From positions 372,001 through 436,000 of the forward strand of contig CM114271.1 of NCBI GenBank assembly GCA_050084515.1: a stretch of DNA of 64,000 nucleotides, given 5' to 3'. Within the stretch, counting starts at the first letter, position 1. The number at the start of each line of letters is the position of its first letter. The position numbers were made by a program, and so were the translations under genes. Origin of the DNA: Blasia pusilla. Lineage: Eukaryota. Under the pieces are notes generated by a model, which saw nothing but the letters and a program-made list of their open reading frames with translations, was not told the origin of the DNA and made no database searches. This document shows positions 4,801 to 56,716 of this stretch, one piece after another.

Positions 4801-4979
4801 AGGATGAAACTGGGGCTAGATGGCATGGCGAGTTTGATGAGGAGATGGTGCTAGGTTGGCATGCATCTGCCTTTTTATGTTGGTAAGGGATGGACTCTAG
4901 TATGGAGGACCACATGACATCTTATTCTAGTCAAAGGGTAGATGGCCAGCCTTAAGATCCTAAGGTTGAAGATGGTGGT

Positions 4980-9960: not shown

Positions 9961-12397
9961 GAGTAGTGAATTTTTCTTTCTAACTTATATGTGCAACTGA
10001 TTGGATTTTTTTTCGGTTGCAAGAAATTTGTGATCAAGACATGCTGTTGTAAATTTTTTGAATCTGATTGGTTGTAAAGATTAGTGTCGTGCAACTTATT
10101 GGATTCCAATGGGTTGCAAGAAAATTTTGTTTGAGATTAGTTGTTGCAACCTGTCTAAATCTAACAAATTACAAATATTAGTCTTTGGCAATCCATTGGA
10201 TCGAACAATTTTAGCTTGTCGGATTTCAACCTTTTGCAATCTCCTCTTAGTTTTACACCTTAACGTTATGTCCTCCGCCCTTACAAAAAGAAAAATTCAT
10301 GTTCAAGGATTCAACCTTTATGAAAATGTCCTTTGCCCAAACACAAGTGGAGCCAAGAATGCCCATTCATCTTGGAAGTCATCAAAATCATGCCAAAGAA
10401 TCTCCCTTGTTGGGGCATGCCAACAAGAGGCCCATTAGGGCCATTCTGAGATCATGCGATGAAAAAATGTATGTTGAAGCCTTTATTTGATGTGTTGTTG
10501 GAACTCTTCTCAAGAGAGGAGTCCACATCATGGTTGCACCAAAATGGACAAGTCTTTCCTTAGGACGGACATGGGTTTCAAGAGGTGGGGACCCACACTT
10601 TTAGTCCATGATGGAACGCAAGGCAAGGATGAGAGGAGCAATGAGGGAGGAGGGAGTGGAGGTGGAGGGAGGAAGAAATGGGGGAGTATGGAACACGAAG
10701 GCAAGTAAGGGGAATGAGAAAGAAGGAAAAGGTGGGGTCCATACGGACAAGTCTTTCCATAGAACGGACATAAGTCCACGGACACGGATTTTGTCCACAT
10801 GCAACCTTGGTCCACATTGGTGGGGAAATTTTGTGTAATTGTTTCAAGACGTCGTATACAAATAGTGGTAGAGCAGTTTGAGAGAGACTCTTGAAGGTCA
10901 ACTAGAGAAGCATCTTAACTTTTGACAAGTCAAGGGTAACCATCCAGGAAAAAATGCGATGATTGGTCTTGGTGATGAAATCACCCCACCAAGGTATTTG
11001 GAAACATATCATAGCTCCCAAATTTGAGTTGGAGTGTCTTTTGCAAAATCAAGGGATGTTTTCTTTTAGAATTCTCTTGCTAGTGGGCCTTCCAATCATC
11101 CTAACTCAAGAGTTGTTCAACAATATCGTATTCATATCATGGAGGCACATTGCAATCTTAGAAGATGGCATATATCTCGAAGCAACCTCGAACACCAATT
11201 TGGTTAAATCTAATGAAATGAGGAGAGTATACGACACATTCTTGAATAAGAAGTGTACAAGGATAGACCAACCACTATCACGCTTTTGGAGGTTCAAAAC
11301 ATTTGATCGATTTGCAAGAACATGAGATCAATTGAAGAACTTCTTATGTCCAAATAATCATGCCCATTCGAAAAAAATATTCCAAGTTGCCATTGGAATA
11401 TTCCCACCAATTGGCCCATTACTGCACATATCAATCTTGAAAAGGTGGATGATTTGAATTTAAAAACCTGTTTTCTATCGACGGCCCAATAATTTCATGT
11501 CTCGTGTCCTTTTAATATTCCACTTGAATCCTTTCCTACCAATTATCTTCAATGAGTTCTCATTCATGTGAATTGTGTTTTTTCTTAAGATTCTTGGAAT
11601 AAGGTTCTCACACACATTCAAGCATCTTGGATAGTGGAGATTTAGGTTTGTGCATGTTGTGGATCATTTGACAAGTGACTTTTAGTGTTTCGATAAAAGG
11701 AGTATAGTAATTAGTACCCCAAAAGTAAGGAGAGGACCACTTTCATTCTTTTGATTCTTTTGCAATAATAGATCCTTTTGCAAACAAGTTAGAGTCACAC
11801 ATCTATAAGTAGATTTAGAATGTCAAACTTGGAGCCCCCTCTTTTATCTATGTTTGCACATTCAAAGTGAAGGTAAATGCAAGAGAAAGTGTTTTGTTTC
11901 CTCCACACTCTTAAGAAATTCCACATGCATCATAATTAATATTTCATTACCACGGCCAAATGGATTTGGGTTCTCTTGGTTCCTATGTCTCATTACTTGC
12001 CAACTTAAATCATGCCGCGTGTTGTGCCAGAATCTAGATCTTGAGACATGATACTACACTCGGCCGTGGTTTCAACCTAGCGAGAGAGGGAGGACCAAAC
12101 TAGTTTACAAGAACACTTCATAAAATCAAATATTCCTAAGGTATTTAGTCCGAAGTATTTACTAGGCATGGTTTCCATTATAAGCCATTGGGGTGTCGAA
12201 GAGCCCACAACACTCAACTCATAAATCACCCACATTGTGAGTGGTAATAGTAAATTTGAACACCACCATTCTAGGACGGATCAGAACTTGGATCGCCATG
12301 CCGTATCATGTATACTCTCGCATTCAAGGCTATAGGCTCCACGACGTGTATGAGGGCCGAGTTGAGATTTTGCACATGATCATAGTGACACATCGCA

Positions 12398-15300
12398 TCA
12401 GGCCAGCTGCCCTGCGTTTCGAAGTAGCATGACCCGCAATTCTGTCATGTCCTCCATTGCAAAGCGCACACCCTCTCGTCCCAATCCAGAGTCCTTCACA
12501 CCGCCATATGGCTACCATGTGCCCAATAACTCATGCAGAGTGAGCGACCCTCATGATTGCAGCCGCCATGATTAAGTTCAACTTTCAATGGAGAAAAAAT
12601 GTATCTTTACTGGACCGCAACGAATTCTAGTGAATTCGTTTAGTTTCACCCTAAACGCTCCACTGAACTTGATGGATGAACTTAGGCTTGCTTGGAGTTC
12701 GACAAATTCTGGCGAAGTACTCACTTTGAACAGAATCCAACGGAATTCTAGTGGGGTACTTTCACCTTGACCAGCTGACTCTACCCTAAACAACTTTAAC
12801 CCGCAGTGGAAATTGACGCTTTTGCTTCAAATAGGAATAAGTGAGTAAGATGAGTGTGTCAAGGATTAATTACCTGTGAATCAATGCGCATGCTTGGAGC
12901 ATCATTTATGCATACACCACCAACCTCTAATTGCTCAAATGCGTAGAAGGCTTTATTCAAGTCCTTCACAAACACACCTGCCTGGAAACAATGAAGAGGA
13001 TATGTTGTTAGCCACAGCGTGTCAACCTGTTGCATGCCCCTAGGATCCAATCGAATTTCAAGACAAGCAGCACCAGAAGGCGATGAAAAATTCGGGTTTG
13101 ATCCCGAACGTAGCTTTTGATCTCCTGAGATGGCGAAGACTATCAACCCAGTGAAAGGATACGTTGCAGCATGGGTTCTAATGTTCATCAACGTAAACCA
13201 ACCTGCAAACCAAACTTCGACTGATTCACTTGGTTGATTGCTGACTTGTAGTCACTATATGATGCGAGTTCCATAACAGGACCAAAAGCTTCCTCAGCAT
13301 GAACCTGCAAGGTGATCCTCATTTAGTTCTTCGGACAAGTTTTCCTGACCCGTTTCCGCTATGCATCATCGATGGAACAAGCCATCGTTTAGGTTCACAT
13401 AGTGATTGTGAGAGCCCACAACCCATACACTAGTAGAATTTCAAGCCTAATTATGACTCGGAACACTGTTTTGAAGCAAATCTCGGACCTTCATTTCAGG
13501 GTGGACGTTCTCTAATATTGTCGCATCATAAAACACGCCCTCACGCTTTCCTCCGATCAGCACTCTGCAGACACAAACTTCCCAGGTTGAGTGGATTGTT
13601 TCATCAAGACTAAGTTCTCGAGAACTGATTAATTTATTGAACTAAAGGCTTTTTGATAAATCACCTGGCTCCACCATCAACAGCCTCATTAACCCAGCTT
13701 TCCAATCTCTTTGCCTCTGATTCCGCGATCAACGGCCCAATGAAGGTATCTTCATTGCTGGGATCACCCTGCAGGTAATTGGATGGACTCCACAGTCAAT
13801 AATTAATCATTGCCGCATAACCAGCTGTTGAAGAGGTCTGGCTACCTCCCACATAAGAAAAGTGTAGATTACAGGGAAAAGAAAGGTCCTTGGGGACCAC
13901 ATTGTTATGAGGCAAAATGCCCATTACAGCTTCACGAACACTTGAATTACCTTCAAGAGTTTAGACGTTTTTGCAACGAGTGTATCCTTTACTTGTTCGT
14001 AGATTTTCTGCAGTCACGGTGGAGAAATAAGGAGTAAGTACGGACAGCGCAAGAGAACTCATTAGGAGGACCCTTTTTCTGTACAGCTATTCCTGCCAAC
14101 CTTACAATGTTTTGGCTGTGTACCACCTAGTTCAGAAAGTCGAAGGTTCAGAACCAAAGGGGCAGAGACGAATCGAAGATCATTTTAGAATATGAGAAAA
14201 TTCAATCATACGTCAGAGACGTAGACACGCTGAATGCTGATGCATGATTGCCCACTTTGGTAAAACGCTCCGTGAATAATCCGATCCACAACTGTCTCAA
14301 GATCTGGCACGAGATCCTGTTCAAAATACCGACACCCATGGCTGTAAGAATCACGCGTTGAAAAAATTAACCCTTTTTTTAAGGTATAACTTAAATCTGT
14401 TTCCAAATTTCAGCACTCCACCAAATCAGGATCAGATTTATCAATTTGGGCAACAAGATGCAGAATTACCTCCACAACACATGCAGCATTACCCCCAAGC
14501 TCAAGGACCACTTTCGTTTTGCCACATCTGGCTTTCATGTCCCAACCAATCTGCCACAAGATAATCTTCGTGAATCAGAGCTGAAGAGATTCTACCTTCC
14601 ATATGTTAATTTTACTAGTTAGAAAAGAGCAGGACTTTAGAATCCGCAACACAAGCTGTGTGTTTCTCATGATTATCATCTCACGAGCAGCAAAGCAAGA
14701 AAAAACGTGCAGTTGCTAGCATGTAATGAAATGAGCTTATTAGGAGAATCATAATCTCAAATTAAGACACATAACAATCACTATAATTTTTAATTGCCTT
14801 CCATGTATAGGATCTCCATAAATTTTCCTCACTTCACTTCTGTGACTTCATCGCATTGCTGATGGATGGCTCCCCACCATTCTTTTCCCTCATTCTTGTT
14901 ACGTGGACATTTTCTAGCAGTCATCTGGCTATTCAACGCCAAAACTGGTTGACGATACCATATACGGAGAATGAATGAATGCAGCGATTTGTTGTCCACG
15001 GGGACCCAATAGGGCTTGGGAGAATAAATGAAAGAAATATCTCCCTCCTCTCACATATGGTACTTTCTTTGCTTCGTCCCTCTCCTCCCATCCCAGCCAG
15101 TAGCATAATCCCAAGGGCTAGAGGTCTTCGGTTTCTGGGCTACTACAGGCGCTACTTAATCAGCGCAGTAGTTTTTTGTGTGTAATCATTACTAATCGAG
15201 TGTGTCTGCTCCTCATCTTCAAAGATGTGTCAAAGATCTAGAGGCAGATCTAGAATCAGCTGGAGTAATTATTGAAGGACTAGAAAATCTATGCTGTCAT

Positions 15301-18300
15301 TGAAATTTGGATGAGTTCCACTATGGTCATCCGACTTCTGCTCCATCCAATCAAAAAAACTTACACCTACACAAAGAGGGAGCGGAAATGCACCGTTGGA
15401 GACCCCGTAAATGAAAGAAGTCTGAATCTATGATCCGTTACAAACATATCTGCAACATCTCTCGAGCATGGAAGGATGGAAAATGCTCCTTCTGGCAAGT
15501 CGCAACGAGACAGTATCTCTCCCAGAAGTAATGCTCCAAGTGGTGTGCGACTGCGAAATCCATCGTATCTCAGTCAGCTCACATCCTCCACCAAATTCAC
15601 CTCTCAGATAACTGAACGTAACTTTCAGTTCCCGCAAGATGCCTATGCCTACTGTATGAACTGAGCGTAGTCAACTCAACTCTTCAACTAAGCTCGGACA
15701 TTGCTCAAGCAGTAATAACAATGTGAACTCATGCAGGGCAGCTTCCATCTACACAAGAGATCCCAGAAGCCTAGAGTAAGTTTCCGAAGACATAGAAGTT
15801 TAAAAATTCCAGTCACGCATAGCCAGAGCCTGCTTGTTACTTGTAAAGCTGCCTATTGAGTAGAATGACTACCTTGCTGGCTTCAGAACAAATGGACAAC
15901 CAACCGCCAGAGCCGGTGCAATCTTATGAGCAGCCTATCGGGAGAAAAAATAGCACAGCACGTGTAGATCAGGAGTCTGAAATGTTAGTGCAAAACGAAG
16001 CCTGCTCCAAAGAATCCCACACTAGAGCGCTAGAAGAACAGTTGTGAACGAGACGATATCTGCTAAATGACATAAGAAGAGCACCCTTGTCTTACCAAGT
16101 TCAAAGGGAAGTTGAATGGGCTGATCATGCTAACTGGGCCAATAGGGAAACGTCGAACCTGCAGTTTCATGAACTCAGTAATTCGGACCAAAGATATTAC
16201 GCCATAGAAACCTTAACCTTAAAGACAACTTTACCCAGCAACAGAAGGTACATACCAGCGACTGGTAACCTTTACAGCGCTCTGAAATATCCAAGGGAGC
16301 ATATTCGCCATATCTATATTTACAGAAAGCTTAATCAAGAAACCCATCATGTCATCGTTTACAAGAGAATTATCTACCGTATATTCGGGCTAACTCTAAA
16401 ACCAGGAGACATTGTCAGGATTTCAAATTGTTACGTGCGCAGGAAGAAAATTCTTCACTACTGCTGTGATAACGTAAGAAGATAAACTAGAGTTTCACGT
16501 GCGATTGTCCCGACTCCTTATCAACAAAAAAAATGCGACTCAGAATTAGTTCAAACACTTCGATCTGTCCGCCGAAACGCATTTGCCACTGTCGAGCCTT
16601 TCCTAGCTGGCCGGTGAAGAACTCCCTAGTTTCCTCACAATTATTTCCAAAAGAATCGTGAATTTGGAAACAAATCAGAGATAATAACAGAGATGCAGAC
16701 AATTAATGACATCCACGTAAGCTCCTTTCCAAACGTGGACACGTATAGAGCAGCACTAAAATCATAACTCGAAACTCACATGCGAGTGCTTTCTTCTGCC
16801 GCGATGGTGAATGTGTCAATCAGCCGTTGTACCTCACCTCTCGAATCCCTGCCAAAAGATCAGGGACAATTCTCAGAACAATGAAATAAAAATATCAGAT
16901 AGGCAAAGCTTTTCTTCATAGGAGCATTCTCAATAGAATTAGAACCGAGCTCCTGGATCAGGAACTTCAAAATAAGTCAAGTCACTACTTTTCTGTCTTT
17001 GGTCTTGTTGTTATTCAATGTTGCATTATGAGCGATATGCTGAACAAACTTACTGACAAACTGTTAAATTTGGACACTTTCAGATTCATATAGTCTCACA
17101 TCCACTGGACATTCCTGACCTAACAACGCCCTCTACACCAGTGATGGACAACTTGATAAGTGAAACCAACGGACAAACACGGCCGAAACATGTCGCGGTG
17201 TTACTCTTAAGGCAGGACAACTACATAATGCGAAGATCAACCATGAAAAAATTCAGGCCATGTGAGGACAAATTGTTATCTCCAAGCTGGATAAACATCT
17301 TTGTCTTGAAAGAGACTTTAAGCTGCTGTGAAGGAGACACCTAAGCTCCACCTGGATATAGTTGATGAAGATTTATTACCACCACATGGACACGATTCCA
17401 ACAGGATTTCCAATACTCAGAAGTTCATGACATGTTTACAAACAGCAACAACAAGGGTGATGGGGGGCAAGCATGCCTGGTAGCACCCCTTGTCTCCTTG
17501 GCCACTCTTGATTAAGAGAAAGTTGTGTTCTTTATCTAGGTGGCAAAGAAGGCGGGAATACTGAAAGAGTATCAGGCCTTCCCTTACGAGGCTCCCTCAG
17601 CTTGTATTTACCGGCCGGGGGCGGGGGGGGCGCGTGGTCCCTGTGGTGGGGGATTTCAGGGGGATAACGGCCAGCAACCAAGCTCCGACACTACGGAGGA
17701 GGCGCATAACAAAGAAGAGTCCTCATCGGATTGATCCCTCAGTGAGGAATTCTACCCACACCTCACGAACAGTGCTCGATCCTTTATCTTGCGATTTACA
17801 AAGGCATTCCTCTATGGACGAATACCCACTGCACATTCTGAATTCAACAAAGGATCCTCAACTTCAGTGATGGACTACTTGATTATTGACGTCCATATCA
17901 GATCCCTGGGGTTCAAGGTCAACTTCACACCTGTCCTGAATGTGATCATCAACATAATTTGACATCTGCGTCTCCAACGCCATCCCCCCTTAGCGGAGGA
18001 GAACGAAAGAGAGAAAGAACGCGATAAAATGGCATTTCACTTTCCTATGGGAGGAAGCAAGCAAACTGAACGTAATGGTTAGTGCTGCACTCAGAAAGTG
18101 CTCATCACCCATGAAGGCCACAAAGTGGAGGAGATTCTAAATGACTGGCTGAAAAGTCTTCCCATTCCACTCATCTAGAGGCAAACATACGGTCAGGGCT
18201 TCATAACAAGTGTAAGTTGATGCCCAGGGAAATGAACAATTCCATGAGGGCAGAACCAAAATCCACACGCTCGGGAGCTGCACGTCACATATAAACAGTT

Positions 18301-21300
18301 GTTGCGTAGAAAAAAATTGGAGACAAGACCTTCGAATGTGCAGAGCAACTGAAACACCCCTCAGCAGCTTCATTTAGGGATAGGAGAGACATTCCTCTAA
18401 AGAGTCTTCAGGTATGGACCACATATGATCACCAGCTCTACAATTTTGACACTGCAATACCCACCAACCCATGGCAAGATGGGGACAGGGATCTGCCAGA
18501 CCTCTTACCATGGACGAAATCAAATCAGGCATCCCAAGTTTACACAAAACATCAGGCTCAGAGATCCAAATCAGCAAATGAGGTTGTAGTTGAAACACTT
18601 CCCGAATTGTTCTACACTGCAGTTCGACAGATGAAGACCATTGACCTACTGACCTAATGGTGGCCTCTAGATACAAAACTGTCATCGTTAGCTCGCTCGT
18701 AGCCAAACATTATGGCCTACAGCTGAAAAGAAAGATGAGTGAGCTGATAAGATGAATGCCCAAGCTAGAGGGCGAGCTGGTTTCCGAGTCACATTTTCAT
18801 ATTTCGAGTATTCATTAAAGTCTTCAAGAATTCGATTGACACGGTACTATGGGAAATCCTCTGGAAACGTCTGGAACAATCGAGGGTCGATACGCACCTG
18901 TTTCCTGTAGTCAAATATTTTTTGCCGCGGTGTTACCAAACATCACCACTCGAAAGGCCAAATCATACACATTGTCTTCAAATATTGGGGTGTAACCAGG
19001 CTGCCCACTGTTTCTACGTTGTTTGAGTTTCACACTGATCAACTGGATGCAGTGCTCTGTGACATGAAAAGGGATATCCCTGAACTCGCGCATTACCAGA
19101 TATCATTGCTGATCTATGCGGATGAATGTATTTCAATGGGCTCCGGAATTTGCAAAAGACCAGGAATGGAATCCAACCTCGAAGAAATAAAAACCTTCAC
19201 CTTCGACTCTCAAATCCCAGGAGCACGGCGACCACACACCTTCACAAATGGGCAAGGATCGAAAAGAGACGCTATAGCGATTGTGGGTGAAGACTAATCT
19301 CCTTAAGGCTACGGCTCAAACCCTATAGCCATTGGAGAACAAATGGCAATAACAGCGAAGCTGAGGCAGCTTTGAGATTCTCATCTACTGCGATTAAATT
19401 GCAGGAGACTGAATATATGAGAAACCACAGAAACACCATAGTCAATTCAGCTACGCTCCATGCTTCAGACGTCTGTGGCAGCCCGATTGGTGGGCCAAGG
19501 GATCGGATGACCACAGAACCTCGTCCTGCGACAATGCTTGGGAATCAAGAAAAAAAGACACTCCTCGTGACCTGGTGCTGGCAAAGTCCGGAGAGGTGAC
19601 AATGGAAATTAACGCTATCCAAAATTTGATCACATTCCTTCGGCACCTCCAAGTTATCAATGTCTACGACCCTCATTACATTTCTTCCAGGACAGTCCTG
19701 CTGCTGGGGAAATTGACTGATTGTTAGAGGGAGTGACCTACACTTCTGTCTTCTGGGTTAAGCGCCAGAAGGGAAGGTGCAATTCGTCTGGGAAACATGT
19801 GAGAAGGATGCGAAGTCTCCCCACTTTCATGCATAAATCTACAATGCAAGCTTCTTACGTTTCCAACCGGATGTTCATCATAAATTGGCTAGATTTAGAT
19901 GTAGATCGACTCACTGAAGTTCTAGAAAGGAAGTCATGCCGTTTAGCCATTCTAGTTCAGGGATGCTTGACGACGTACATCATTACGTTTTCAATTCCTG
20001 CTGTCATGATGACATTACACAGACGTTCACTGCTCCATTCCAGGACCCTTACCACAGTGTCTCTGATTTCATGACTAGCCAGTGCAAGGTTTCGAATCTT
20101 ACATTTCTACACGGGTGTGTGTAATTCAGCTGAGTTTTCTACACTGCCTTTAATTTTCAAGATCCTTTTACTGACTTTAGTAAAACGTTTATTTAAATTG
20201 TATCTCTCTAACAAGGCGTACTTACCTCGTGGAATGAAATAAAAAGACTTGAAAATCGTATCCCAGAACGAGCTCCAACTCTTTAGCGCTATGGTACCGC
20301 CAGCCTCACTCTTTACTTCTGAAGCTCGGAGTCCTAGCCCTCGCAGCTGCCCAAATTTCTTGGATAGGCCACAACAAACCTTACGAGGCAATGACTTGGC
20401 ACCAGGAAAGCAACATCTCGGCCAAATTTCGGGGAGGTTCTAATGAGATAAGTGCTCTCAGCACGGAAAGACATCAATGATATTGATCTTAATTGCCTGT
20501 CTCAAACACCTTTGAGAAATTCTAGGGGGGACTGCTCTCTCTAGGGCAGAACAGCTACAATAACTCTAGCTAATGGCCTCACAAACTGGGTATGTCCATT
20601 GATGAGCACTCCATCTCTCCAAGGAGCAGCACTTATCCTCTAGTTCTACTACTGTCACGCTCTTGAAGAACCATCGAACCGCACAAAGAAAAGGGAGATC
20701 TCATACCTTAGCTTAATGAACGTTGAGAGATATACTGAACACACCTCTTACCTCTAATTCGTACTTTACAGCAATTAGGGTCAAGCACTGGCCAGATTTA
20801 AATGTGGCTAATCAGGCTGAGAGTTGTAACAAGGAATCAAACTCTAAAAACCTGGACAGACTACGTAGACAATACCATTCGGGCGACATCGATGATACTG
20901 ATGCCAACCACTACCTTTGCTACTGTAGCTTCCATGAGAGAAGTAGAATAACCGTCCATAAAGTGTTCCACGGCACGCCCCTGGCTTAGGGTGCTTCACC
21001 TCTAGTCTAGATCAGCTTCACAATGTCGAGTTTTTACATCGGTGTGACGTTGCTAGATTACATTTAGCTTCTTAGTTAACCACTGGTTTCTATTCCTATC
21101 AGTTTGCTGGTCTGGCCTGATCTCGCTAACTTAGGTTAGCAGATAAGGCAATATACCGTCTTTTCAAGTCTCTGGTCTCCTTCTGTCTCGAAAGACAAGA
21201 AATTAGTTCTCTCGTTCATTCCAAAAAATCTTCTTTAAATTATCTGAGAGCATTCTGAACCATTAAGAAAGTATGAGCCTCCAATGTCACAACGTTGAAA

Positions 21301-22033
21301 AGAAATTTGACTCCTTCCCCAAGCGAGCATTATGTAACCATCAGACTAGGTATGAATAGCTTAATGCAGTTTAATTTTTGTGCTCCTATGCAGAAAAGCT
21401 CTGAGTCACTAGTCTTCATGAACCTGAAGAACCGGCTTCAATCGGTAAAAAGTTGGTATCTTTGTTGCTCGATATCTCCCAATAGCAGGGAGGCACTACT
21501 CGTTCCAAATCATCATTACTTGGAGTTACACAGCTGCACAACACATCAATACCAATTACGCGAAAACCTCTTCGCTGACTACACTCTTCATTAGGAGAAG
21601 TCTGCATTCTGCAAACTTTCCAACTTTTTTGAAACTTTTTTGTGGACTGAATTCAACCTTTAATATCCCTGTATGCCAGTTTCTTGTTAATATAGATCTT
21701 TGTATATTCATGTTAGAAGTTTGCTACAAATGTCGTAAAAGAGAATGGTGATGTATACCTGATAGGTTTACCAGCTTCTACACATAATGCGTGCGCGAAC
21801 TCTTCAAAACGTTCCTTCACCTCAAGCACCACCTTTTCAAGGACCGCCTTTCTCTCATAACTCGCCATAGCATTCATTGCAGGCATGGCCCTTTCAGCTG
21901 CAGCTATTGCAGCGTCGATATCTGCTGCACCGGCCAATGCACAACGCGCAACAACTTTGCCAGTGTACTTGTTAGTCACCTGAAGTTCCGAGTTGGGTCT
22001 CACCGCTTTGTTTGCAATGTACATGGGGTATGA
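12398..22033 (-). other. ALDH21: C-terminal aldehyde dehydrogenase moiety, ALDH21 family, exons 17-30
   Basis: [65 protein letters not shown] (catalytic Glu), [10 protein letters not shown] (catalytic Cys), [37 protein letters not shown]. Confidence 0.92.
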
Positions 22034-25000
22034 CCGTATTTCTAGCTCTTCCTGATTCACTGTAGCATCGGCTGCCAAGTCTATGCTTGTCGACTCACTG
22101 GGATCCACTGGCACAGATTCTCCTGATGATGCACTTAAATATGGGGTACCATGTGTTATCTCTGGTTCCTCTCTGACCGACACATCAACATCGTCAGGTG
22201 TAGCTTCTCCTATGACTTCATTTGACTCTGGAGCACCATCTGCTGCCTCTGGTTTCTCTTCTGGAAGAGACATTTTCTTCAGAGAGTCTTGTGAACCGGA
22301 TTGCGATCCCTCATTGAAAGTCGGTCCTTGGAATCCCCGAGGAGTGGGTGGTATTGCTGTTGCTTCTGATAGGGCAATAGAGATTCTCTGTCCAGATCAC
22401 ACCCAGAAATAAAAAATGGTTAGTCAGCCTATCTCTGGTGAAAAAATAAGTACACAATATCCCAATCATCCGTGCATTATTACATATATTATGACTTACT
22501 GGTGCCTTTGGCATCATATTCTTGATAATTCCAGGCAACTCTTTGTCGAGGATTGTGTTTGCCCATGTATAATCCACAGGAACCTGCAAAACAGAAGTAT
22601 TGGCCACCATGATTGCCATTGCAAGTGAAAAAAAATCTTAAGTCATATGAAAACGTTCACTTTGACCACCCAGAGCATCTAATTAACATGGAGATTTACA
22701 GTTCTGAAATAGGTTTGGAAAAAGGGTAACTTTGATGATCCCACGCAACTAGCACTACACTCCAAACTTTCACTCGTCCTGACTAAGCTTCTCTGTACTT
22801 TTAGTTACCTCAATAAGCTTCACTCCTGTCTTAGAAACATGAAGACATTCGTGCAGAATTTGAGAAAAGCCATCAGCTTCCGTTACACGATATCCCTTGG
22901 CCCCATAGCTGCAAAAAGATATGCAGTGCTAATCACTGGTGATAAAAGAAATTCCCAATTAAAATTCCCTGCTTTAAGATTAAAGACATGTGTGTTCGTG
23001 AGATTTGTTCAAATGCTTGAGGCTATATTCTTTTCTCAAACTCCCGAATAGTGAAATTACAACTATGAGATCAGTAAACAGAAGCTACTTCTTGATTTCA
23101 CTTTTTGTATTTTGGTCAATCTTATTTTTTGGTGTGGGGGATATTGTCTTCCAGGGTTCCTTAACAGTCTCCATGATTCCAGATAGAGTCCTCAAGGGTT
23201 ATAATAGACCAAGAATAGGAGTAACTAACCCTGAACCCCTGAGACTTCACAAAACACTCATCTGTCTCTACTCTTCAGATTTAGAGTGTAAATGGCATTT
23301 GATCACCCAAACTCAGAGCACACAAACTTTCCGAATCTGTTGATCCAAGCAACTATTTCCTATGGTTATCGGCTGAAGAAATGTAAAATGTTCATTTCAT
23401 TGACCAGTCTTATCATGTAACTTTCCCTGGGGGGAAACTTCTAGTACGCAGTAGTACCTGTTTGCGTACGCCACAAAATCAGGATTCTTAAGTTCCAATC
23501 CAAATCTGCAATTAAAAACAACTTTCGAATCAGAGTAACTCAGGACTGATTAAACAGAAATAACTTCCCTAACACAGGTCATCTGATATGTTGTGACTTG
23601 GACATGATCACGTTAATATTTACAAATGTTCCATGTACAACTAGACTGAGTTCTATGAATGTTACCAGCGAACAAAATATAGAAAACATTAGAATCCTGA
23701 GGAAAAAATGTTGACGCTGGAAAAAATAGTCCTTACCTTTCAAAATGAGCTGCATTCTGTTTCCATTTTATCATCCCGTAGGCATTGTCATTTATGACAA
23801 TAACTGTAAGATTCAGATTTAAGCGAACAGCAGTCTCCATTTCCTGGCAGTCAGCGTTAAAAGTCAGCGTTAAAAGTTGCTCGAAATCAGTCTCAAACTT
23901 CTTCACTGCTCACACATAACCACTAACTGGATCGGCATGAAGATACACTATACAGCTGCTACAGACAGACCAAAGGGAATGTCATAATGAGAACAACACC
24001 AGTTAGCATTGGGAAGCTAGAAGATGGTCCTACATATCACGCTGTGACTTTTATTTGCAAAGCCACGTTCCTTGCCTGAGAGTTCATCATGAAGCCACCA
24101 TCTCCACAAACAGCTACGACCTTTCTGTCGGGGTATAATAATGCAGCCGCCATTGCTGATGGCAGTCCGGCTCCCATTGTTGCTAATGCATTGTCCAAAA
24201 GCAAAGTGTTGGGCTCGTAAGCCTGCGCAGATCAAAGCGTCAATTTAATATTGGCAACCTACATCAACAATATCTTCTAGTGTCATTCAAGACATGACTC
24301 TTGAGACAAATCATCTCCAGGGAAACCATCAACGAGTATATCTGTATGCTATGTCGCTGGTCCTAGTGCAATATTGTTATATAAATCCAGAGGTAAAGCC
24401 CATCCTGTAAACTAGACAGAGTACTGCGCAAAATCATTCAGAGTTCAAAAAAAGACCTTGTAGCAGCGGGCAAACCAGATCTTGTACATTCCTGCCAAAA
24501 CATAAAAAAATCCAACTGTTAAGTGCGTTCAAGGCGGAAGAAGGAGCTACTCGATTCAATTATCCCCTTGGACGAAACCCAAACTCTCCAAATCTCTAGC
24601 GAAACTTATTACAGATTCATTCATGAACGATTATACTAATAAACTACGTTCTAGGATCAATTCAATTTACCTACCATTTTCAGGTGAAGGACAGGGTGCA
24701 TGGGAAGGAAAGTACGAGAACATACTCGGAGAGTCTGAGAATAAAAAACCCCAAAAGGCTGTGATGAGCCAGGAAATAAACCCTTGGATCTAAAATCTCC
24801 GAGTTCAAAACCCACAACTACTAGCAATCCAATGGCAGTGAAAGTAAATGCAGGCATGAGGTGTCTTCACCTCTTGGACTCAAATTGTGAAGAATGGAAA
24901 CATAATATACTCTACACAAGTTACCACTCTTCAATTCTTTTGCCTTTCAAAATGCTCTACGGTTCATAAGCCTCTGAGGTTATACGCGCCAACGGTAGAG

Positions 25001-28000
25001 TGGGCAGGAAGAGGATAGGGCAAAAAGCTAAAATAAAATAAAATTCCCGGCTGGCAAGGGCCCCATATCTCATCACTGACTAAACATCTTGCATAGACCA
25101 CAAAATCTGTCATGAGCCAAAGGTTTGGTGTCAGGAAAAAATCACTCAAGTATCTGGTGCTCGCAAAATTTGGTGAGGTGCCGAAGAAGATGCACGTTCT
25201 CAAGAACATCCCAATTGGCTTTCTGCTAGAGATTTGAAGCTACTAGGGATAGTGCTCTCCTAGGCACAAAAAAACAGTACAGCAGCAGTCACAGCACAGA
25301 GAATGGCTTCAAGGTGGGCATGCCAACTGATGACTCCCCCACAACTACCAGCAAACAGCTGTCAGAAGAGCTGCACAAAGCCTATTTATCTACAAGATGG
25401 GATACTGATCAGAAGCGTCGGGAGAATGAACGAATGACTAGATTTACTGTCGACTGGGACCCCAGAGGCCTATGGGACTTAATTTTGCAAGTGGTAAAAT
25501 GTGTAGTTGCTCCCACAGGTCCTGGTCAGCGCTTGTTGATAGGTCATGGATTGAAATGCCCTTTTTTGAGACATTCGCTGGAGTCATAGTACCAGTTCGG
25601 CAGCAGCACACTAATCCTAGAAGCTTGGAAAGCTCTTGCAGAAAGACGATCTGGGTCATCTTCACTGATATTTTGAAGGTGTTGAAGGAATGTGATCAGA
25701 TTTTTTGACGCATGAATTGGTACCTCACCAAACTCAGCCCGGAGCAAGTCATGGAGGGTTGTTCTCCTAATGCCCAAGCTCTGTCGCATGAAGAGCCGGA
25801 TCCAAAAGAGCACCATGACGGCGTAAGAGATGAGAATCGATCGCACCTCCATGAATTTTAGGAGATCAACTGAACGAATCTCCTAATCTTTCTACCTCTA
25901 CTAAGAGCTATCGAGAACAGGGCAGATTCAGATCTGGCTCATCAGGCTAATTGGAGCGGGGAAAGCTTTCACTCAAAAAAAGGGAAGACAGACTGTAAGC
26001 ATCGCCGTTCAGTGGAGCCAGATAATATGATGCAGAACCTTTCAAAATGCAGATACCATGTCAACATTTAAAGTGACTACTACGAACACTTCCAGGTCCC
26101 TACCCTGACTGAACGATTTCATGTGCAGTAGAAACCAAGTTAGTTATCTACGTTCCTAGATCAATGTTTGGTTGTTAGAGTTCCACATCGAGAAGAGTTG
26201 GCTTTTTGGGAAAAAAAACTGGATTCTCCTGATGTTATTTGTCATCCGTGAGTACTGCACATATTTTAATTCCAAGTCTCGGGGTACTCCTTGTGTTCCC
26301 GCGGACTATAGATAAGTTCATTCAGCTACGCTCGAAGACTTAGTTTACAACTAGTCAATAATTCTGGTTCAAGAATTATTGGCACATTCTTATTGAGACA
26401 CATTGCACACATACATAAGCCCCAAGGACAGGCTCGTTGGGCCGTCAGCTCTTTCGGTCTTGCGCTTTTACAATAAGTAGATGGTAAATCATTGACATTT
26501 CCACTGGACTTCTGGCTCCACTCTCAAACAAAGCTAAGTTTCAAAGATAATGGTCGCTGATTATCCCTCAAATGTTCAAATATTTAAGCTCAATGAACAC
26601 CCTACACGACACCGCACAGGAGCTAAAGTGCAAAATTATTCACTTTACTTACCATTGTCAAGGCACACAATTCCGTCATCGGGCATAGCCTTCCTGCACA
26701 ATCACAAAAGACGACAAGCTCCTGACATCTCATGAAAACGATATTTTCAGTCGATGAAAATATGTAATTAAATCTCGCGATTCCTTGAGGACAAACTAAA
26801 GACACACTAGGCTCAAAGTCTTCTTACATGTTGAATTCAAAGAACTTGACATGCGGCCAGGTAGTTTTTTGCGACACAACTGTAAATCTTGATCACGATA
26901 GTATTTTTAAACCTGAGATCAGACACAATCCGTTGTGGCATCAGTGGAAACCGTGAATCAGTTGTACCGATCAGCTGGTGGGCTTCTAGCTCCTTCTTGA
27001 CCTGGCGGGAGACATTACTCAGATCTTAAAAAGACATAATTTCTGGCCACATCACCAGAGTTAGTCTGTTCGCCAAGCAGAAACTGGGAACAAATGAGAC
27101 CTACATCAGCTAATCGCGTCTGGTAATGAAGTGAATATATCGTAGGTTGTGTTTTTAGAAGACCATGACAGCATGTTCTACATACACTCAGTATACCTGA
27201 ATGTGATGCTTACAACATATATGGGAGTTATATATCAGTGTGCTCATTAGGCACGTGCGAGAGACACCTGGTAGTAATACAAAGCTGTAGCTCTAATTAA
27301 CGGTAATTCGTTTAGGAATGTCTATGCTTGAAACTCACAAGCACCATGCTATATTCGGAAGGAATTAAGAGAGCTAAGCGAAAGAACGTCACGAGTTCGA
27401 CGCGCAGGAAGAGGGCAAAGCGAAACTCTACCTTGTGGATGAAGCTGTAGTCCCAATGCGATTGCTTTGTTATACGACCCTTCAGTTGCCAGATTGCATT
27501 GGCAATATCGCCCACAACCTCTAACTGAAACAGGCGTGCACATTATCAGATACTAACGGCAACATAGCTATTTTGACACTGCTAGATCATAAGCTAGTTG
27601 AAACGTGGAATTATTTTCAGCTGTCAAAAGATTGGTAAACGAAATTCTCAACGCATAATGTATTAGAAGTAAATGATATTTACTCACGTGAGGAAAGTAC
27701 ACATTGTCCACCTTCGCAGTGTAAAAGTGAATGTGAATGACCATTGGGGGTTTCCCATGACTGCGATGCCAACCATGAACAGGTTAGTACATGGTACGTG
27801 TGGGATACTGGATTTATCATATCTGGTCCTACCTCCATCAGCAATTGACTAACCAAGCAGCTGTTGTGAAATGCCTGTTTTCGCTGCCAACCGAGAATTT
27901 CAACAGAAATCCGCGAAGAGGAATCGTCATCCTTTCTGAATCCCGGCGATAATGGGTTACAACAGGAAAGACAAACTCTTCCAGCGCTTAACGGGACATC

Positions 28001-31000
28001 TCAAAAAATCTTGCATTTAGACTCATGCTTATTGCTGATGACCATTGTGATTGCAGGAAACATCACTGCAGATATTACTTCATGTACTACTTCATATTAC
28101 TTCCTTCCTAACAGTGTGCCAACGGTCCGCAATCACTTCAATACCTTATATCAGGCACATCTACAAATACCTATATCAGCATTAGGTTCTTCCACCCTCC
28201 AATAGTTTCAAATGATATAACATATTTGTTGATTGTAATAAACCCTTACAACCCTCCGGGCTTTGAGAATATTCTGATCCTCACTGGCACACGATAAAAA
28301 TATTGTTTCTAGTAGGAACACACTCCAAACCCTGACAATGACTTTCTACGTAGTGATTGCTTTTCAGGGCTTTTTATAAACTTTCTGTTAAGAGGATCGT
28401 GCACAAATATGTTCCTTTGATTGTCCTACACTTTTCCCGACAGATTCAGGTCAGAATATGGGATAGTACTGGCAGTGTAGCTAGACATCATATGAATTTT
28501 ACAAGCACGAAAGCCTACGTGACACTCATAGATGGATGTATATTCGTATCATTCAGTTTTTCAGGATCTTGTGCATGAGTTACCTCATTAAAAATGGAGG
28601 TTTTTCAACAACATCGTGACCAACCATTATGATAAGATCTGCTTTCTCAATGCAGACATGCTCGTAGTCCTTTGCTGACAAAGCGCAGCAACCTAGGTAC
28701 AGCGGGTGGGCCTCTGCAAGGTCCACGCAAGTCAAACAACAGTTCCCATCATACATTTATGAGCTAAACTGGAATAGCGACGGCGTGCATCTAATTTGTA
28801 GTAATAGCGCTCAAAGTCTGCTGAATTATTCGGCTGTTCAAAAATCTTACCCGAAACAACACCCTTCCCCATCTGGGTTGTGATGAATGGGATGCTAAGT
28901 TCGTCCACCAGTTCCCGAAGCCTGCAGTACGAAACATAGGTATATCATAAAATTTTGTTTTCTACTGGAAAGTCAAAGAGAACGAGGAGATGTACTATTG
29001 TGCTCCTGGCACTTTTCCTTACATTTTCTGTGTCAGTTTGCGATTAGCACCAGCACCAATTAGAAGGAGTGGAGTTTCTGCAGCCTCGATCATCTCAACA
29101 GCCTTCCGAATCGCCTTTTGTTCAGCAATTGGCCGTCTCACAGGATGCACCGGAAAAATCGGGGCGTCAGTTTTCTGTTCTGCGATATCCTCCGGCAATT
29201 CCAGATGTACTGCTCCAGGTTTCTCTTCTTCAGAAACTCTGATTGCCTCCTCACTAGTGATGGCACTAGGTCTCCATCCGCTATCTGTTTTGTAAACTGC
29301 ACATGGACTCTCACAATATTCCCTCTTAGAATGTCACCCAGTTTCAAATGCACTTGACAATAGAATCTTGAAAACTTCTTTCAACCCAATTAGTCGACTA
29401 TTTATCGAACAGGGTGTAAACCCCAGTTCGGGTTTCAACAACTCAGTTCTCAACGATATCAAAAATATTCAGCGACGTCACTCTTCCACAGCACCTTCTC
29501 GCATCGATTCTAACCTTCGATTAAATTTTACATCTGACCATGCAAATCTTCTCGGTAAACAGAACGAGCTTTGTCTTCAAAAGGTCTTCCCATAAAGACT
29601 CCCGAAAGGTAAGCAACCAAGTCTTTAACATGTTGAATTGTTGCTTCCTTGGCTAATACGTTATGGGTTGACCCCAGCTGCAACGCCTTCTCAGATTAGA
29701 AAAGAAAACTCCTCTCTTGAGTTATCATCCAAGACATTGGACCAACGCAGACCACTATAAACAGACTTCCAAAAACCTACCACTCGGTGGCCATTATCCC
29801 CACTTCACATCCATGAGCCCACTTCACATCCGTGAGAGGAGGCATCAGATCCACAGTGAAGTCATCGTGCTTACAGGCACCACCTTCAAGCTCACAGGGA
29901 TACATTTGTTGTGGGCATCCAGCCCCAACTACCAAAATCAGAAACTTACGCCCACATGCAGAGCAGACCATTCAATTACCTTATCATTCTATGAACATAC
30001 ATTAGATGGAACCATCTTGAAGAGATTCTTAAATCACCACTTTGAGTAGTTCCACAAAGAGAATGGGCATAAATACTGCGATGATCAAGAAAGCATGATC
30101 CAAAGATCTATAAAGCCTACATCCTGGTTAGAAATCCTTCAAACACACTGGGACGTACCATCCACCTAGAAATATGCGTAACAAAGTCTTACGGAAGATG
30201 TTTGCTTACTTGGCTTCACAGATCTGCATTTCAGATCTGTGAAGCCAAGTAAGCAAACATCTTTCCCAACGAATGCACCACCTTCACTTTCCTCAATTGT
30301 TTTCCCGCAACTGGATCACCGTCAATATTCTTCCAGGAAAGCCCCGGGCGGGAGCGGGGGGCTGGAGGGACGCCATGTAACATATCTCACCTTGGTGATT
30401 GGACGCATGTTCTCAACGATGTCTACAATCTGGAATGACCCCTGCTTACTTTTGCGGATAGGCTTCTGGCCGGTGATCATCATCTGCTCACATCCACATC
30501 AAGTAGATAAACTTAGCACAGGAAAAAGAACTAAGGCAGTCCCATTCCCCTCACGCATTTTTAGATCTCGCAACGGATGACGCAACTAAACTTCCCAAAT
30601 ACTTGCACGTCTTTAACCACAATCCCCACTTTGTAAACCCCAATTGTCCACCACCAGCACCCCAAGGATGAGTAAAAGTGAATGTGAGTTAAAGACCAAA
30701 CCATTGCGAAACCAGCCAGCTGCGCGTATGCAGCAGCAGTGGCAAAATTTGTCGCTCCAGGTCCCAAGGTGGACAAACAAACCCCAACCTTTCCTGTCAA
30801 TCTCCCGACTGTAGCAGCCATAAATCCTGCTGCCTGTTCATGCCTCGTTACCACCAGCTTTATCGAAGAAGTTTTCAGAGAGTCCAGCAAATCAAGATTC
30901 TCTTCTCCAGGTATTCCGAAAATATACCTGCCAAAAATTACAACCAACCCTGTGATGAGACTACAACACAGGCAATGGCGAGTATCCCATATCCACAAAA

Positions 31001-31448
31001 AAATATGGGACAGTAAAGTCGGGATTTGTTACGAATTAGCTAGTCTTCCTTAACTCAGAACGATTCTTCCCCAGACCCTGCTATGTGCGAACTCGCGACT
31101 AGTCTTTGGAGAGCACTCTCCCAAGGGCCATGAGCCTCGAGACAGAAATTGCATGTTTATGAGGATCGCTCGGAGCACCAGCAGTACGAGAGAGTGAGGA
31201 TTAGCGATGGCCCCTCTCACATGATCTCTCTTCAAAATATCCTGCTTTAGAAGATGCAAATCGCTGAAGAAGGTTGAAATCGCGCAACACAATCCAACTC
31301 GAATCCTCAATTCCATGAGGAATCAGTGATCTTCCGTTTGATCAGCGCAAGATGTTGTAGGAACTCACTCTATACCCTCGTTCTCCAGCGCCTCCACCAT
31401 CACATCAGAAGTTTTCCTCATCACGGCAGAAGGAGTTCCTGTCGTCAT
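12398..31448 (-). CDS. Fusion protein: ThDP-dependent acetolactate-synthase-like enzyme (candidate 2-oxoglutarate decarboxylase) + ALDH21-type aldehyde / succinic-semialdehyde dehydrogenase; 30 exons, 1158 aa if one missing base in exon 4 is restored
   Basis: Exons (minus strand): 31448-31369, 30927-30702, 30483-30391, 29296-29023, 28921-28851, 28713-28584, 27760-27688, 27524-27432, 27001-26913, 26693-26653, 24491-24457, 24222-24076, 23843-23737, 23505-23458, 22908-22809, 22583-22500, 22387-21759, 16848-16780, 16313-16256, 16158-16096, 15934-15873, 15550-15394, 14550-14470, 14316-14212, 14007-13951, 13768-13665, 13564-13489, 13304-13203, 12981-12874, 12511-12398. All introns are GT-AG except one GC-AG, phases agree at every junction, and no stop lies between the two domains. 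Confidence 0.88.
17400..19800 (+). mobile_element. Decayed LINE (APE endonuclease + RT), antisense within intron 17 of the fusion gene
   Basis: [13 protein letters not shown] and CDHQ (APE-like); degenerate GVxxGCPL near 18990 and LLIYADE (YADD-like) near 19110. Boundaries approximate. Confidence 0.6.
22500..31448 (-). other. N-terminal ThDP-dependent enzyme moiety (acetolactate synthase large-subunit-like, bacterial PRK08322 type), exons 1-16, ~564 aa
   Basis: [75 protein letters not shown]; ThDP/Mg motif [11 protein letters not shown]...[26 protein letters not shown]. Confidence 0.93.
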
Positions 31449-32467
31449 ATCTTACTCGGAACGACACTTGTCTCGTAAAACAAAAATGAACGTGAACGCG
31501 ATCGCTCCCGATTTTTTTTCCCGAAAATCAATTCTCCACGAAAATCCTGCGAAGAATTTACCACGGACGGTATCAGACGCGCGCGTAGAACAACCAATCC
31601 CCGAATCTGAATTCCATGAGCGGATCACAACAACACTCCCGATTGCTTTCTCTCGCCATCACCTACCAATTCCACATGTTTCAAACACAATCGCTGCAAC
31701 CAAATGTCAGGTCAGGTCAGCCATTCAATCAAAACCTCGCACGTAGCGCATGCGAGCATCAATCCGGGTCTGGAACCGTGCGAATTCCTCCACGCATCCA
31801 CGCAGAAGTTGCGAAAGGAATTCGGTCAAATTCAGCGCACTACGTGCGTTCACTTCTGGCGATGCCGCTTCCAATGCGCTGCGCGCCTACTGCAGAATGC
31901 ACAGAGCTTCTTAAGCCAAGGCCTGCAATTCGCCTCCGACGATCGCGTGCGCACAGTGCGAGCACTGCGAGCCTTCTTCCGCGGGGAAGTGTCAGCCTGT
32001 CAGGCTGCCCCGTCCGCTGCACAGGTGTCTCGCTCTCTCGCTCGCTCCTCTGACTCTCACGCCCGCTGCTCTTATCATCGATCCTCCGGTCTCCCCTCGC
32101 CACCACTGTCGACGGACGGACGGACGGACGGACTATGGTCGGACTACACGTCCGATGAAATAGTAGATGGTAGGTACTGATTGCCGCTTCTGCGCTCGAT
32201 ATCAGGGAACCACTGCAAACGGACAGACGGAGAAAAGGACGGATGAACAAGCCATGGTCGGAATACAGTAGCGCTGACTCCGACAACGTCTCCGATGCAT
32301 GCACTACTGGGTAGGACCCAGCGATCCGACCATAAAAGACGATGGAAGGAGATGAGGGGGCTTCGTTTAGGGTTGAGAACGAGGTTCTATAGGGAACACA
32401 ACACACACATCACGTAAGTATTGGGATGCTAGCATATTGTTCACATATTCTCTTTTAACTACGTCAA

Positions 32468-56637: not shown

Positions 56638-56716
<79 letters not shown>

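Follow-up and report, generated by a model that had tools for sequence, protein, structure and literature searches.

Structure of the fused gene

The window analysed here, i.e. the whole stretch of 64,000 nucleotides (nt) from Blasia pusilla (assembly GCA_050084515.1, contig CM114271.1, forward-strand positions 372,001 to 436,000), contains on its minus strand a gene in which a thiamine diphosphate (ThDP) enzyme is fused to an aldehyde dehydrogenase (ALDH) of the ALDH21 type. The gene has 30 coding exons between the ATG at 31448 and the TGA stop codon at 12400-12398 and corresponds to approximately 1158 predicted amino acids, counting one base which is absent from the window. In the predicted protein the ThDP enzyme (TPP_N/M/C, up to approximately residue 560) is followed by a linker of approximately 120-130 amino acids rich in Ser, Glu and Pro and by the ALDH21-type dehydrogenase (from approximately residue 683). 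The model was obtained by tblastn with seven full-length database homologues, all in-frame donor/acceptor pairs being scored against five. All 29 introns have GT-AG borders with the exception of one GC-AG intron, and the reading frame is open in 29 of the 30 exons, the sole break being a frameshift in exon 4. The locus is a single, expressed nuclear gene, and the bryophyte it comes from is closest to Marchantia and Riccia. Its features are listed with position in the window, strand, description and basis.

12398-31448 (-): whole coding span (tblastn cores, splice refinement, translation, RNA reads)
31369-31448 (-): exon 1; ATG 31448-31446, with an in-frame stop two codons 5' of the ATG
30702-30927 (-): exon 2; TPP_enzyme_N core including the cofactor-activating Glu57 (Pfam PF02776, E 6e-25)
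30391-30483 (-): exon 3 (splice scoring)
29023-29296 (-): exon 4; bears the frameshift (splice scoring, translation)
29249-29250 (-): site of the 1-nt gap in exon 4 (sequence, RNA reads, X2 contig)
28851-28921 (-): exon 5 (splice scoring)
28584-28713 (-): exon 6 (splice scoring)
27688-27760 (-): exon 7 (splice scoring)
27432-27524 (-): exon 8 (splice scoring)
26913-27001 (-): exon 9 (splice scoring)
26653-26693 (-): exon 10 (splice scoring)
24457-24491 (-): exon 11 (splice scoring)
24076-24222 (-): exon 12; GDGG motif for the ThDP diphosphate (Asp443), GC-AG intron next (donor cagGCAAGG)
23737-23843 (-): exon 13; NDN...Y..M...K (Asp470, Tyr473, Met475, Lys479) (splice scoring)
23458-23505 (-): exon 14 (splice scoring, joint 22908/23458 in reads)
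22809-22908 (-): exon 15 (splice scoring, joint 22908/23458 in reads)
22500-22583 (-): exon 16; last ThDP-enzyme exon, ends ...KNMMPKAP without a stop (sequence, splice scoring)
22388-22499 (-): linking GT-AG intron of 112 nt; branch site CTAAC 22424-22420 (sequence, RNA reads)
21759-22387 (-): exon 17; linker and first 77-80 or so residues of the ALDH domain (open reading frame, Pfam)
16780-16848 (-): exon 18; Arg782 (= Arg121 of PpALDH21), preceded by an intron of 4910 nt (joint 16847/21758 in reads)
16256-16313 (-): exon 19 (splice scoring, reads)
16096-16158 (-): exon 20 (splice scoring, reads)
15873-15934 (-): exon 21 (splice scoring, reads)
15394-15550 (-): exon 22 (splice scoring, reads)
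14470-14550 (-): exon 23; catalytic Glu927 (ELGGN) (splice scoring, reads)
14212-14316 (-): exon 24; Tyr956 (= Tyr296 of PpALDH21) and catalytic Cys962 (splice scoring, reads)
13951-14007 (-): exon 25 (tblastn core, splice scoring, reads)
13665-13768 (-): exon 26 (splice scoring, reads)
13489-13564 (-): exon 27 (splice scoring, reads)
13203-13304 (-): exon 28 (splice scoring, reads)
12874-12981 (-): exon 29; Arg1117 (= Arg457 of PpALDH21) (splice scoring, reads)
12398-12511 (-): coding part of exon 30; TGA 12400-12398 (translation, reads)

The 3' untranslated region extends below 12398, with read depth present to at least 12000. The linker (model residues 565 to approximately 682-690) is acidic and hardly conserved, matching only Marchantia, with 30 % identity; the 133 residues from 565 contain 14 % Ser, 12 % Glu and 11 % Pro. 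The ThDP domain begins the protein in both the window model and the homologues, and the lack of an N-terminal extension ahead of it suggests that the fusion protein is probably cytosolic. The GC donor of intron 12 (24075-24076, cagGCAAGG), the sole non-GT donor among the 29 introns, was assigned from homology and splice signal.

The junction between the two halves

Exon 16 ends, on the minus strand, with AAG AAT ATG ATG CCA AAG GCA CCA, directly followed by GTAAGT (donor GT 22499-22498). The intron of 112 nt (22499-22388) contains CTGACTAAC with the branch A at 22421, 33 nt ahead of the acceptor CAG; its retention would give a ThDP-only protein with a tail of 61 amino acids. The exon that follows (22387-21759) consists of 209 open codons, in which the non-conserved linker runs into an Aldedh match (Pfam PF00171, exon residues 133-209, E 1e-14), and the donor/acceptor pair 22500/22387 scored best in the spliced alignment to the database homologues. 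The first-pass annotation, made from the sequence without database searches, had described ThDP exons ending without a stop, a 112-nt intron with a CTAAC branch site and an exon reading open into the ALDH, and all three are borne out, the intron also by splice scoring and RNA reads. The phase 0 that it gave for the junction holds once the base missing from exon 4 is counted (1692 nt, or 564 codons, upstream); the frameshift itself had been overlooked.

RNA data covering 12000-31900 were taken from three raw-read RNA-seq runs with the same species label (X8, X9 and X10) and from one contig run (X2). The joint 22387/22500, which skips 112 nt with CT..AC on the plus strand, was present in 19, 80 and 15 reads of X8, X9 and X10, respectively, with 12, 35 and 10 different start positions, as well as in the X2 contig (depth 188). 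Downstream, the joint 16847/21758 had 23, 49 and 20 reads and the joint 16313/16780 had 21, 47 and 16 reads in the same three runs, and upstream the joint 22908/23458 had 13, 54 and 19 reads. First mates mapped to the plus strand, consistent with a minus-strand RNA. The 15 joints listed, of 36, comprise the linking one and 14 others (13 in the ALDH half and 22908/23458), all of which agree with the model within the 1-2-nt shift of the table; the remaining 14 junctions of the ThDP half are supported by homology and by their splice signals. Within the linker exon, no clustering of read starts was listed. Reads across 22387/22500 are about as frequent as those across the neighbouring ALDH joints, and therefore the fused mRNA is a major form, and probably the main one. 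In most transcripts with the first ALDH exons, these are joined by splicing to ThDP exons. The splice model, the domains, the structural relatives and the reads thus agree with the earlier proposal of a single gene and mRNA joining a ThDP enzyme to an ALDH21-type dehydrogenase.

The frameshift in exon 4

The reading homologous to other proteins shifts frame in exon 4 between 29250 and 29249, where one base is missing in the window, and the raw spliced coding sequence consequently stops at codon 185. One extra letter at 29249/29250 (T on the plus strand, A on the minus strand) was found in 14 of 14 reads of X8, 33 of 37 of X9 and 23 of 25 of X10, and also in the X2 contig. It yields GTG AGA GAG GCA (VREA), restoring the homologous ...SLVREAIR.... 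Since nearly all reads bear the frame-restoring base, the frameshift reflects either an error of the assembly or a private variant, and not the state of the sampled transcripts. A tiny intron at this site was considered and dropped, as GTGAGG there leaves an intron of only 8 nt. At 29249-29250 an automatic annotation of the assembly is likely to yield a truncated or split gene.

The RNA runs show approximately 30 further fixed single-letter differences from the window between 12604 and 31889, and a 2-nt deletion at 12144, in the 3' untranslated region, in 33 of 33, 87 of 93 and 42 of 52 reads. The RNA therefore came from another accession, or the assembly contains scattered errors; the expressed gene is intact in either case.

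The ThDP enzyme half

Domain and family scores were taken on homologues, which are 85 % (N-terminal half) and 82-86 % (C-terminal half) identical to the window protein and which carry the Pfam domains TPP_enzyme_N, M and C plus Aldedh. The N-terminal half exceeds the cut-off (509) of NCBIfam NF006187 (PRK08322), with 836 and 849 bits for P0003 and P0006, and a moss ThDP protein (P0061) scores 837 bits on the same model. The cut-offs for catabolic AlsS (NF006378, 468 and 441 bits vs 510; TIGR02418, 425 and 396 bits vs 551) and for biosynthetic AHAS (TIGR00118, 349 bits vs 538) are not reached. The nearest solved structure is 13bb, deposited as an acetolactate synthase (E 7e-144), with catabolic AlsS next. 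At the position of Lys479 the alignment has Lys in the plant family and in 13bb, and Gln in ancestral AlsS.

In the paper describing it (PMC10418658), cyanobacterial KGD is a 2-oxoglutarate-specific ThDP enzyme; the pocket residues of the Microcystis enzyme (MaKGD) were named from an AlphaFold model with docking and mutagenesis, Lys471 being docked against the substrate. The motif defined in the same source as GDG-X(25-30)-N(C)N is intact in the window model as GDG-X26-NDN (Asp443...Asn469-Asp470-Asn471), and the cofactor-activating Glu57 is present. When the MaKGD residues were placed on the plant domain by their spacing from the GDGG motif, seven of the eleven pocket residues, whose roles derive from docking into a model, were found to be kept (Lys386, Ala408, Met410, Asp435, Asp462, Tyr465 and Lys471). 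A Methanoperedens representative with 13 of 14 KGD positions also lies within NF006187 (718 bits), which suggests that the cyanobacterial KGDs are probably a different subgroup of this family. No cyanobacterium was present among the best 80 genome loci of the ThDP subfamily, the plasmid tblastn matches or the named cluster representatives (Methanoperedens, Nitrospiraceae, Marinicella). Two of 14 named control genomes scored above the cut-off, and a cluster-level search yielded generic acetolactate synthase clusters only.

The ALDH21-type half

The nearest solved relative of the C-terminal half is the Physcomitrium patens enzyme PpALDH21 (PDB 5mz5; E 5.5e-195 and 2.1e-198), with an identity of about two-thirds as judged by eye, the threshold for membership of one ALDH family being an identity of >40 %. 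The next-best structures are the bacterial ALDHs 5j6b, 5kf0 and 5jry, which we take to originate from Burkholderia. The half scores below every NCBIfam cut-off.

The carboxylate of succinic semialdehyde is held in PpALDH21 by Arg121, Tyr296 and Arg457 (bioRxiv 10.64898/2026.01.13.699213, accessible text). These align with identical residues in the Marchantia protein P0002 (chain numbering offset 18), and the window model contains the whole triad (Arg782, Tyr956 and Arg1117) together with the catalytic Cys962 and Glu927. The conserved catalytic pair and triad thus support the earlier assignment of this half as a predicted ALDH21-type succinic semialdehyde dehydrogenase (SSADH). The same source reports succinate approximately 20 % lower in P. 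patens, for the aldh21A1 knockout only (bioRxiv 10.64898/2026.01.13.699213), which fits a succinate-forming role without proving one.

In the database comparison 5mz5 scored 664 bits against the liverwort ALDH domain, bacterial homologues approximately 655-700 bits and fused streptophyte proteins 794-914 bits. No moss ALDH21 was present among the best 120 database matches. The stand-alone moss ALDH21 may be fast-evolving or of separate descent.

Distribution of the fusion

In a length-restricted search with the Riccia protein, 80 of the 120 proteins listed combined a TPP-enzyme domain with Aldedh. At least 30 of the full-length fused proteins have an ALDH21-type C-terminal half, 54-82 % identical to that of the window, with linkers of 47-124 amino acids. 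Those with a named source are from liverworts and a fern (Riccia fluitans, R. sorocarpa, Calypogeia fissa, Ceratopteris richardii) and from algae and protists (a Mesotaenium model, Bryopsis, Ostreobium, two Coccomyxa, Elliptochloris, Hondaea and an MMETSP transcript), and the same arrangement is found in a Rhodosorus protein of 966 amino acids and in fragments from Marchantia and Adiantum. The architecture is thus predicted in liverworts, ferns, zygnematophyte and green algae, a red alga and a labyrinthulid. Some of the fusions are on contigs of 3.8-4.0 kb, little longer than the open reading frame, suggesting that these contigs are assembled spliced mRNA. Mosses have ThDP-only proteins, in Physcomitrium (626 and 625 amino acids) and Sphagnum (722 amino acids).

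Trees were built with FastTree, and their support values are to be read cautiously. In the tree of the N-terminal half, 27 of the 30 fused ALDH21-type entries and three ThDP-only bryophyte entries form one clade (97); within it a streptophyte clade (100) includes two ThDP-only moss proteins, and the window sequence groups with liverworts (99). The tree of the C-terminal half has corresponding streptophyte (99), chlorophyte and red-algal groups. This match between the trees points to the two halves having travelled together and to the separate state in mosses being derived.

Calypogeia fissa has both a fused (1139 amino acids, P0046) and a ThDP-only copy (620 amino acids, P0007), which are sisters in the tree, and among the EukProt SM models (P0436 and P0005) an ALDH-only model of 420 amino acids is nearly identical to the C-terminal half of the fused model of the same alga. 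Recent duplication, allelic scaffolds or split annotation may account for these pairs.

The fusion, of which the first-pass annotation knew no description in plants, is not a novelty of this genome and is already among the predicted proteins of many plants and algae, unnamed or misnamed: the database labels are hypothetical protein, NADP-dependent glyceraldehyde-3-phosphate dehydrogenase and, at the C-terminal half, probable lactaldehyde dehydrogenase. No paper found by the literature search, which left aside the key 2017 ALDH21 paper with its supplements, contains the fusion, and the words fusion, acetolactate, thiamine and bifunctional are absent from the accessible text of the 2026 ALDH paper (bioRxiv 10.64898/2026.01.13.699213). 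The components of the fusion and the two-enzyme pathway are already known.

Prokaryotic relatives and gene neighbourhood

The best 80 prokaryotic genome loci of the ThDP subfamily, in Burkholderia, Pseudomonas, Paraglaciecola, Planctomycetota, Calditrichota and others, encode proteins 57-66 % identical to the plant proteins. In 56 of these loci an ALDH gene follows directly on the same strand, with gaps of 63-513 nt separating the matched stretches; in three more it is found within 1.6 kb downstream, and in one it is upstream. Forty of the 60 linked ALDHs are of the ALDH21 type (54-66 % identity) and 20 are of other types (31-45 %). Among the latter, the ALDH of locus L037 is a GabD-type NADP-succinate-semialdehyde dehydrogenase (1004 bits vs a cut-off of 828), two are SSADH-like below the cut-off (575 and 586 vs 730) and one resembles 2,5-dioxovalerate dehydrogenase, also below the cut-off; 15 match lactaldehyde dehydrogenase alone, below threshold, and the remaining one (L078) matches nothing at the thresholds used. 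The flanks of five bacterial loci are unrelated (CYTH, transaldolase, OsmC, DUF1501, BamA and others). On haloarchaeal plasmids a ThDP relative adjoins an annotated NAD-succinate-semialdehyde dehydrogenase (H7, H10, H37). In Synechococcus 7002 the KGD and SSADH genes are adjacent.

In some bacteria (loci L014, 5641-5644, and L017) the ThDP and ALDH21-type genes overlap by 4 nt or lie 15 nt apart; such overlap or spacing is typical of translational coupling and a short step from fusion. A test for both matches in the same open reading frame found no fused gene in the 80 genome loci. A Burkholderia open reading frame of 1007 amino acids (L003) was rejected as a fusion, being in another frame than the ThDP match and a high-GC artefact.

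Approximately 70 database fusions of 1015-1048 amino acids combine the same ThDP subfamily with a second type of ALDH, 31-36 % identical to ALDH21, through linkers of 3-30 amino acids. The named sources are Candidatus Obscuribacter or Melainabacteria (e.g. P0050, P0067 and P0076), where the PGAP name is acetolactate synthase large subunit. This fusion arose independently of the plant and algal one, because both of its halves form their own clades.

Proposed reaction and alternatives

The fusion is real, expressed and conserved, and from its composition and relatives we infer the chemistry. We consider it fairly likely that the fused gene combines a non-oxidative 2-oxoacid decarboxylase, most likely converting 2-oxoglutarate to succinic semialdehyde, with a dehydrogenase converting succinic semialdehyde to succinate, and that it derives from a fused bacterial operon. 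Release of an aldehyde by the ThDP enzyme is suggested because acetolactate is no substrate for an ALDH, given the ALDH fusion, the conserved operon and the two independent fusions. The aldehyde released by the N-terminal half would be of the omega-carboxy type, most likely succinic semialdehyde formed from 2-oxoglutarate, and the C-terminal half would oxidise it to succinate while reducing NAD(P)+. Together the two steps would bypass 2-oxoglutarate dehydrogenase and succinyl-CoA synthetase without CoA, probably in the cytosol, like the two-enzyme route of cyanobacteria. A bacterial two-gene operon of a ThDP enzyme and an ALDH21-type ALDH would have become one open reading frame early in the algal and plant lineage, and mosses would later have split the halves or lost one. 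The first-pass annotation had likewise proposed a bifunctional enzyme making succinate from 2-oxoglutarate; the fused mRNA, the site for succinic semialdehyde and the bacterial ThDP-ALDH21/GabD neighbours support it in part, decarboxylation of 2-oxoglutarate by the N-domain being a prediction. Conversion of 2-oxoglutarate to succinate is plausible on these grounds, and channelling of the aldehyde between the halves is pure speculation.

The closest known parallel is the cyanobacterial pair of KGD/OgdA (SynPCC7002_A2770, Sll1981, MAE_06010) and SSADH, in which a ThDP enzyme followed by an NADP-type ALDH likewise takes 2-oxoglutarate through succinic semialdehyde to succinate (PMC10418658, accessible part). 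The plant domain shares with KGD the GDG...NDN motif, the cofactor Glu, Lys386, Ala408, Met410, Tyr465 and Lys471, and differs from it at four pocket residues, these comparisons being with the positions named in the accessible part of that source; the cyanobacterial route, moreover, consists of two separate proteins. The 60 best solved relatives of the plant ALDH half did not include cyanobacterial SSADH, and the plant dehydrogenase is therefore of another ALDH family. With the cytosolic, NADP+-dependent SSADH ALDH21A1 of P. patens (5mz5, 5mz8, 5n5s) it shares the catalytic Cys and Glu and the Arg/Tyr/Arg triad. Unlike the fusion, the moss enzyme stands alone, and the accessible text discusses it only as an enzyme of the gamma-aminobutyrate (GABA) shunt (bioRxiv 10.64898/2026.01.13.699213). 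The bacterial NF006187-ALDH modules (Burkholderia, Paraglaciecola, Planctomycetota) have the same ThDP subfamily and a gene order equal to the domain order of the fusion; unlike it, they are mostly separate genes, and the Melainabacteria fusion is short-linkered with another ALDH type. None of these modules is functionally characterised in the literature searched.

Several observations weigh against a 2-oxoglutarate-specific fused enzyme. The weak point is which 2-oxoacid is used; others of the omega-carboxy type are possible, and a site with two Arg residues would take further omega-carboxy aldehydes as well. Some enzymes of the GabD type are glutarate-semialdehyde dehydrogenases. The Km of moss ALDH21 for succinic semialdehyde is rather high, 181 uM, in the accessible text (bioRxiv 10.64898/2026.01.13.699213). 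The four changed positions of the eleven in MaKGD, with roles again taken from docking into a model, are Val382 to Asn, Ala384 to Met, His385 to Tyr and Leu467 to Met (PMC10418658, accessible part), and P0154, which fits the KGD pattern best (13 of 14 positions), is yet only 40 % identical to the moss ThDP protein. The NCBI name of NF006187 is acetolactate synthase (large subunit), no enzymology was found in the literature for members of this ThDP subgroup, and 16 of the 80 loci have no ALDH nearby, four more being too short to judge. At the transcript level, only one of the 15 junctions of the ThDP half is among the 15 joints listed, and depth and joint counts climb approximately 2-3-fold towards the 3' end; this rise may be ordinary 3' bias or may reflect some shorter ALDH-only transcripts.

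The same fusion logic could serve another substrate, namely 2-oxoadipate (to glutarate semialdehyde and glutarate), oxaloacetate (to malonate semialdehyde and malonate), or a non-dicarboxylic 2-oxoacid, e.g. hydroxypyruvate or sulfopyruvate. Such an enzyme would account for an ALDH half that, like most of the ALDHs linked to the bacterial ThDP genes, lies below all curated NCBIfam cut-offs, with lactaldehyde dehydrogenase (429 bits vs 650) and sulfoacetaldehyde dehydrogenase (343 vs 700) as the best models, and for the four pocket residues unlike those of Microcystis KGD; the Arg/Arg carboxylate site would also leave the chain length unfixed. We nevertheless regard it as unlikely, as the sole characterised ALDH21, in the accessible text (bioRxiv 10.64898/2026.01.13.699213), is an SSADH whose three binding residues are conserved here, one bacterial partner is of the GabD type above the cut-off and two are SSADH-like below it, and the absence of conserved catabolic neighbours fits a central-metabolic bypass better than a degradation pathway. 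That the N-terminal half is a true carboligase, making acetolactate or another acyloin, and that the fusion merely co-expresses it with an independent ALDH, is improbable: the NCBI label and the deposition of the closest structures (13bb, then AlsS) as acetolactate synthases would suit it, but the AlsS and AHAS models all stay under their cut-offs (468/510, 425/551 and 349/538), the plant family and 13bb have Lys479 where ancestral AlsS has Gln, and linkage to an ALDH in 60 of 80 loci together with independent fusion to two ALDH families is hard to account for without a shared aldehyde.

Even less probable, and in our view very much so, is the absence of a functional fusion, the locus being two genes joined by read-through or mis-splicing, or a pseudogene with the exon 4 frameshift. 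The stop at codon 185 of the raw coding sequence, an internal Met603 in the linker, the greater depth over the 3' exons and the separate genes of mosses could be read in this way. Against it, the junction reads match those of the neighbouring ALDH junctions in number, the ThDP frame has no stop before the donor, and 70 of 76 RNA reads and an independent contig lack the frameshift, the other 29 exons being intact. Furthermore, the architecture recurs in 30 full-length database proteins with ALDH21-type C-terminal halves, some on contigs of near-open-reading-frame length, and the streptophyte clades are congruent in the trees of both halves.

If the fused protein does convert 2-oxoglutarate to succinate, bryophytes, ferns and many algae would have a shortcut of the tricarboxylic acid cycle of cyanobacterial type in one protein, turning 2-oxoglutarate into succinate with a gain of reducing power and no need of 2-oxoglutarate dehydrogenase, succinyl-CoA or the GABA shunt. 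This would alter how carbon/nitrogen balance and stress-induced ALDH21 are read in non-seed plants, would offer a testable explanation of the succinate drop in the moss aldh21 knockout and would give a function to a large bacterial family currently annotated as acetolactate synthase. The fused gene links the two families in the manner of a textbook Rosetta stone, and as a compact two-step module it might be useful in metabolic engineering. A broader scheme, which we put forward tentatively and with rather less than even confidence, is that non-seed plants and many algae share a single-polypeptide, CoA-independent and probably cytosolic route from 2-oxoglutarate to succinate with NADPH as a product, descended from a bacterial ThDP-decarboxylase/ALDH operon which was fused once, early in the evolution of algae, split or half-lost in mosses and lost in seed plants; moss ALDH21 would then be the orphaned half, and its succinic semialdehyde would be, or would once have been, supplied by a 2-oxoglutarate decarboxylase and not by GABA transaminase.

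Other features in the window

Within intron 10 (2161 nt), the region 25674-25796 has reads in both orientations with loose ends of 48-87 nt leading into sequence absent from the window, and it resembles a dispersed repeat or a transposon fragment that is expressed from another location. Retrotransposon remnants are found at 2335-6149 on the plus strand, with a reverse transcriptase at 3811-4395 (E 5e-31) and an integrase zinc-binding domain and core at 4956-6149; a weak match to a C-5 DNA-methylase lies at 2335-3369 (plus strand, E 2e-7). A second integrase fragment is at 59106-59537 on the minus strand, and a PIF1-like helicase fragment, possibly Helitron-related, at 56218-56778 on the same strand. 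On the plus strand, 45369-46040 contains an exon of ribosomal protein L28e and 63369-63908 a syntaxin-5 N-terminal motif.

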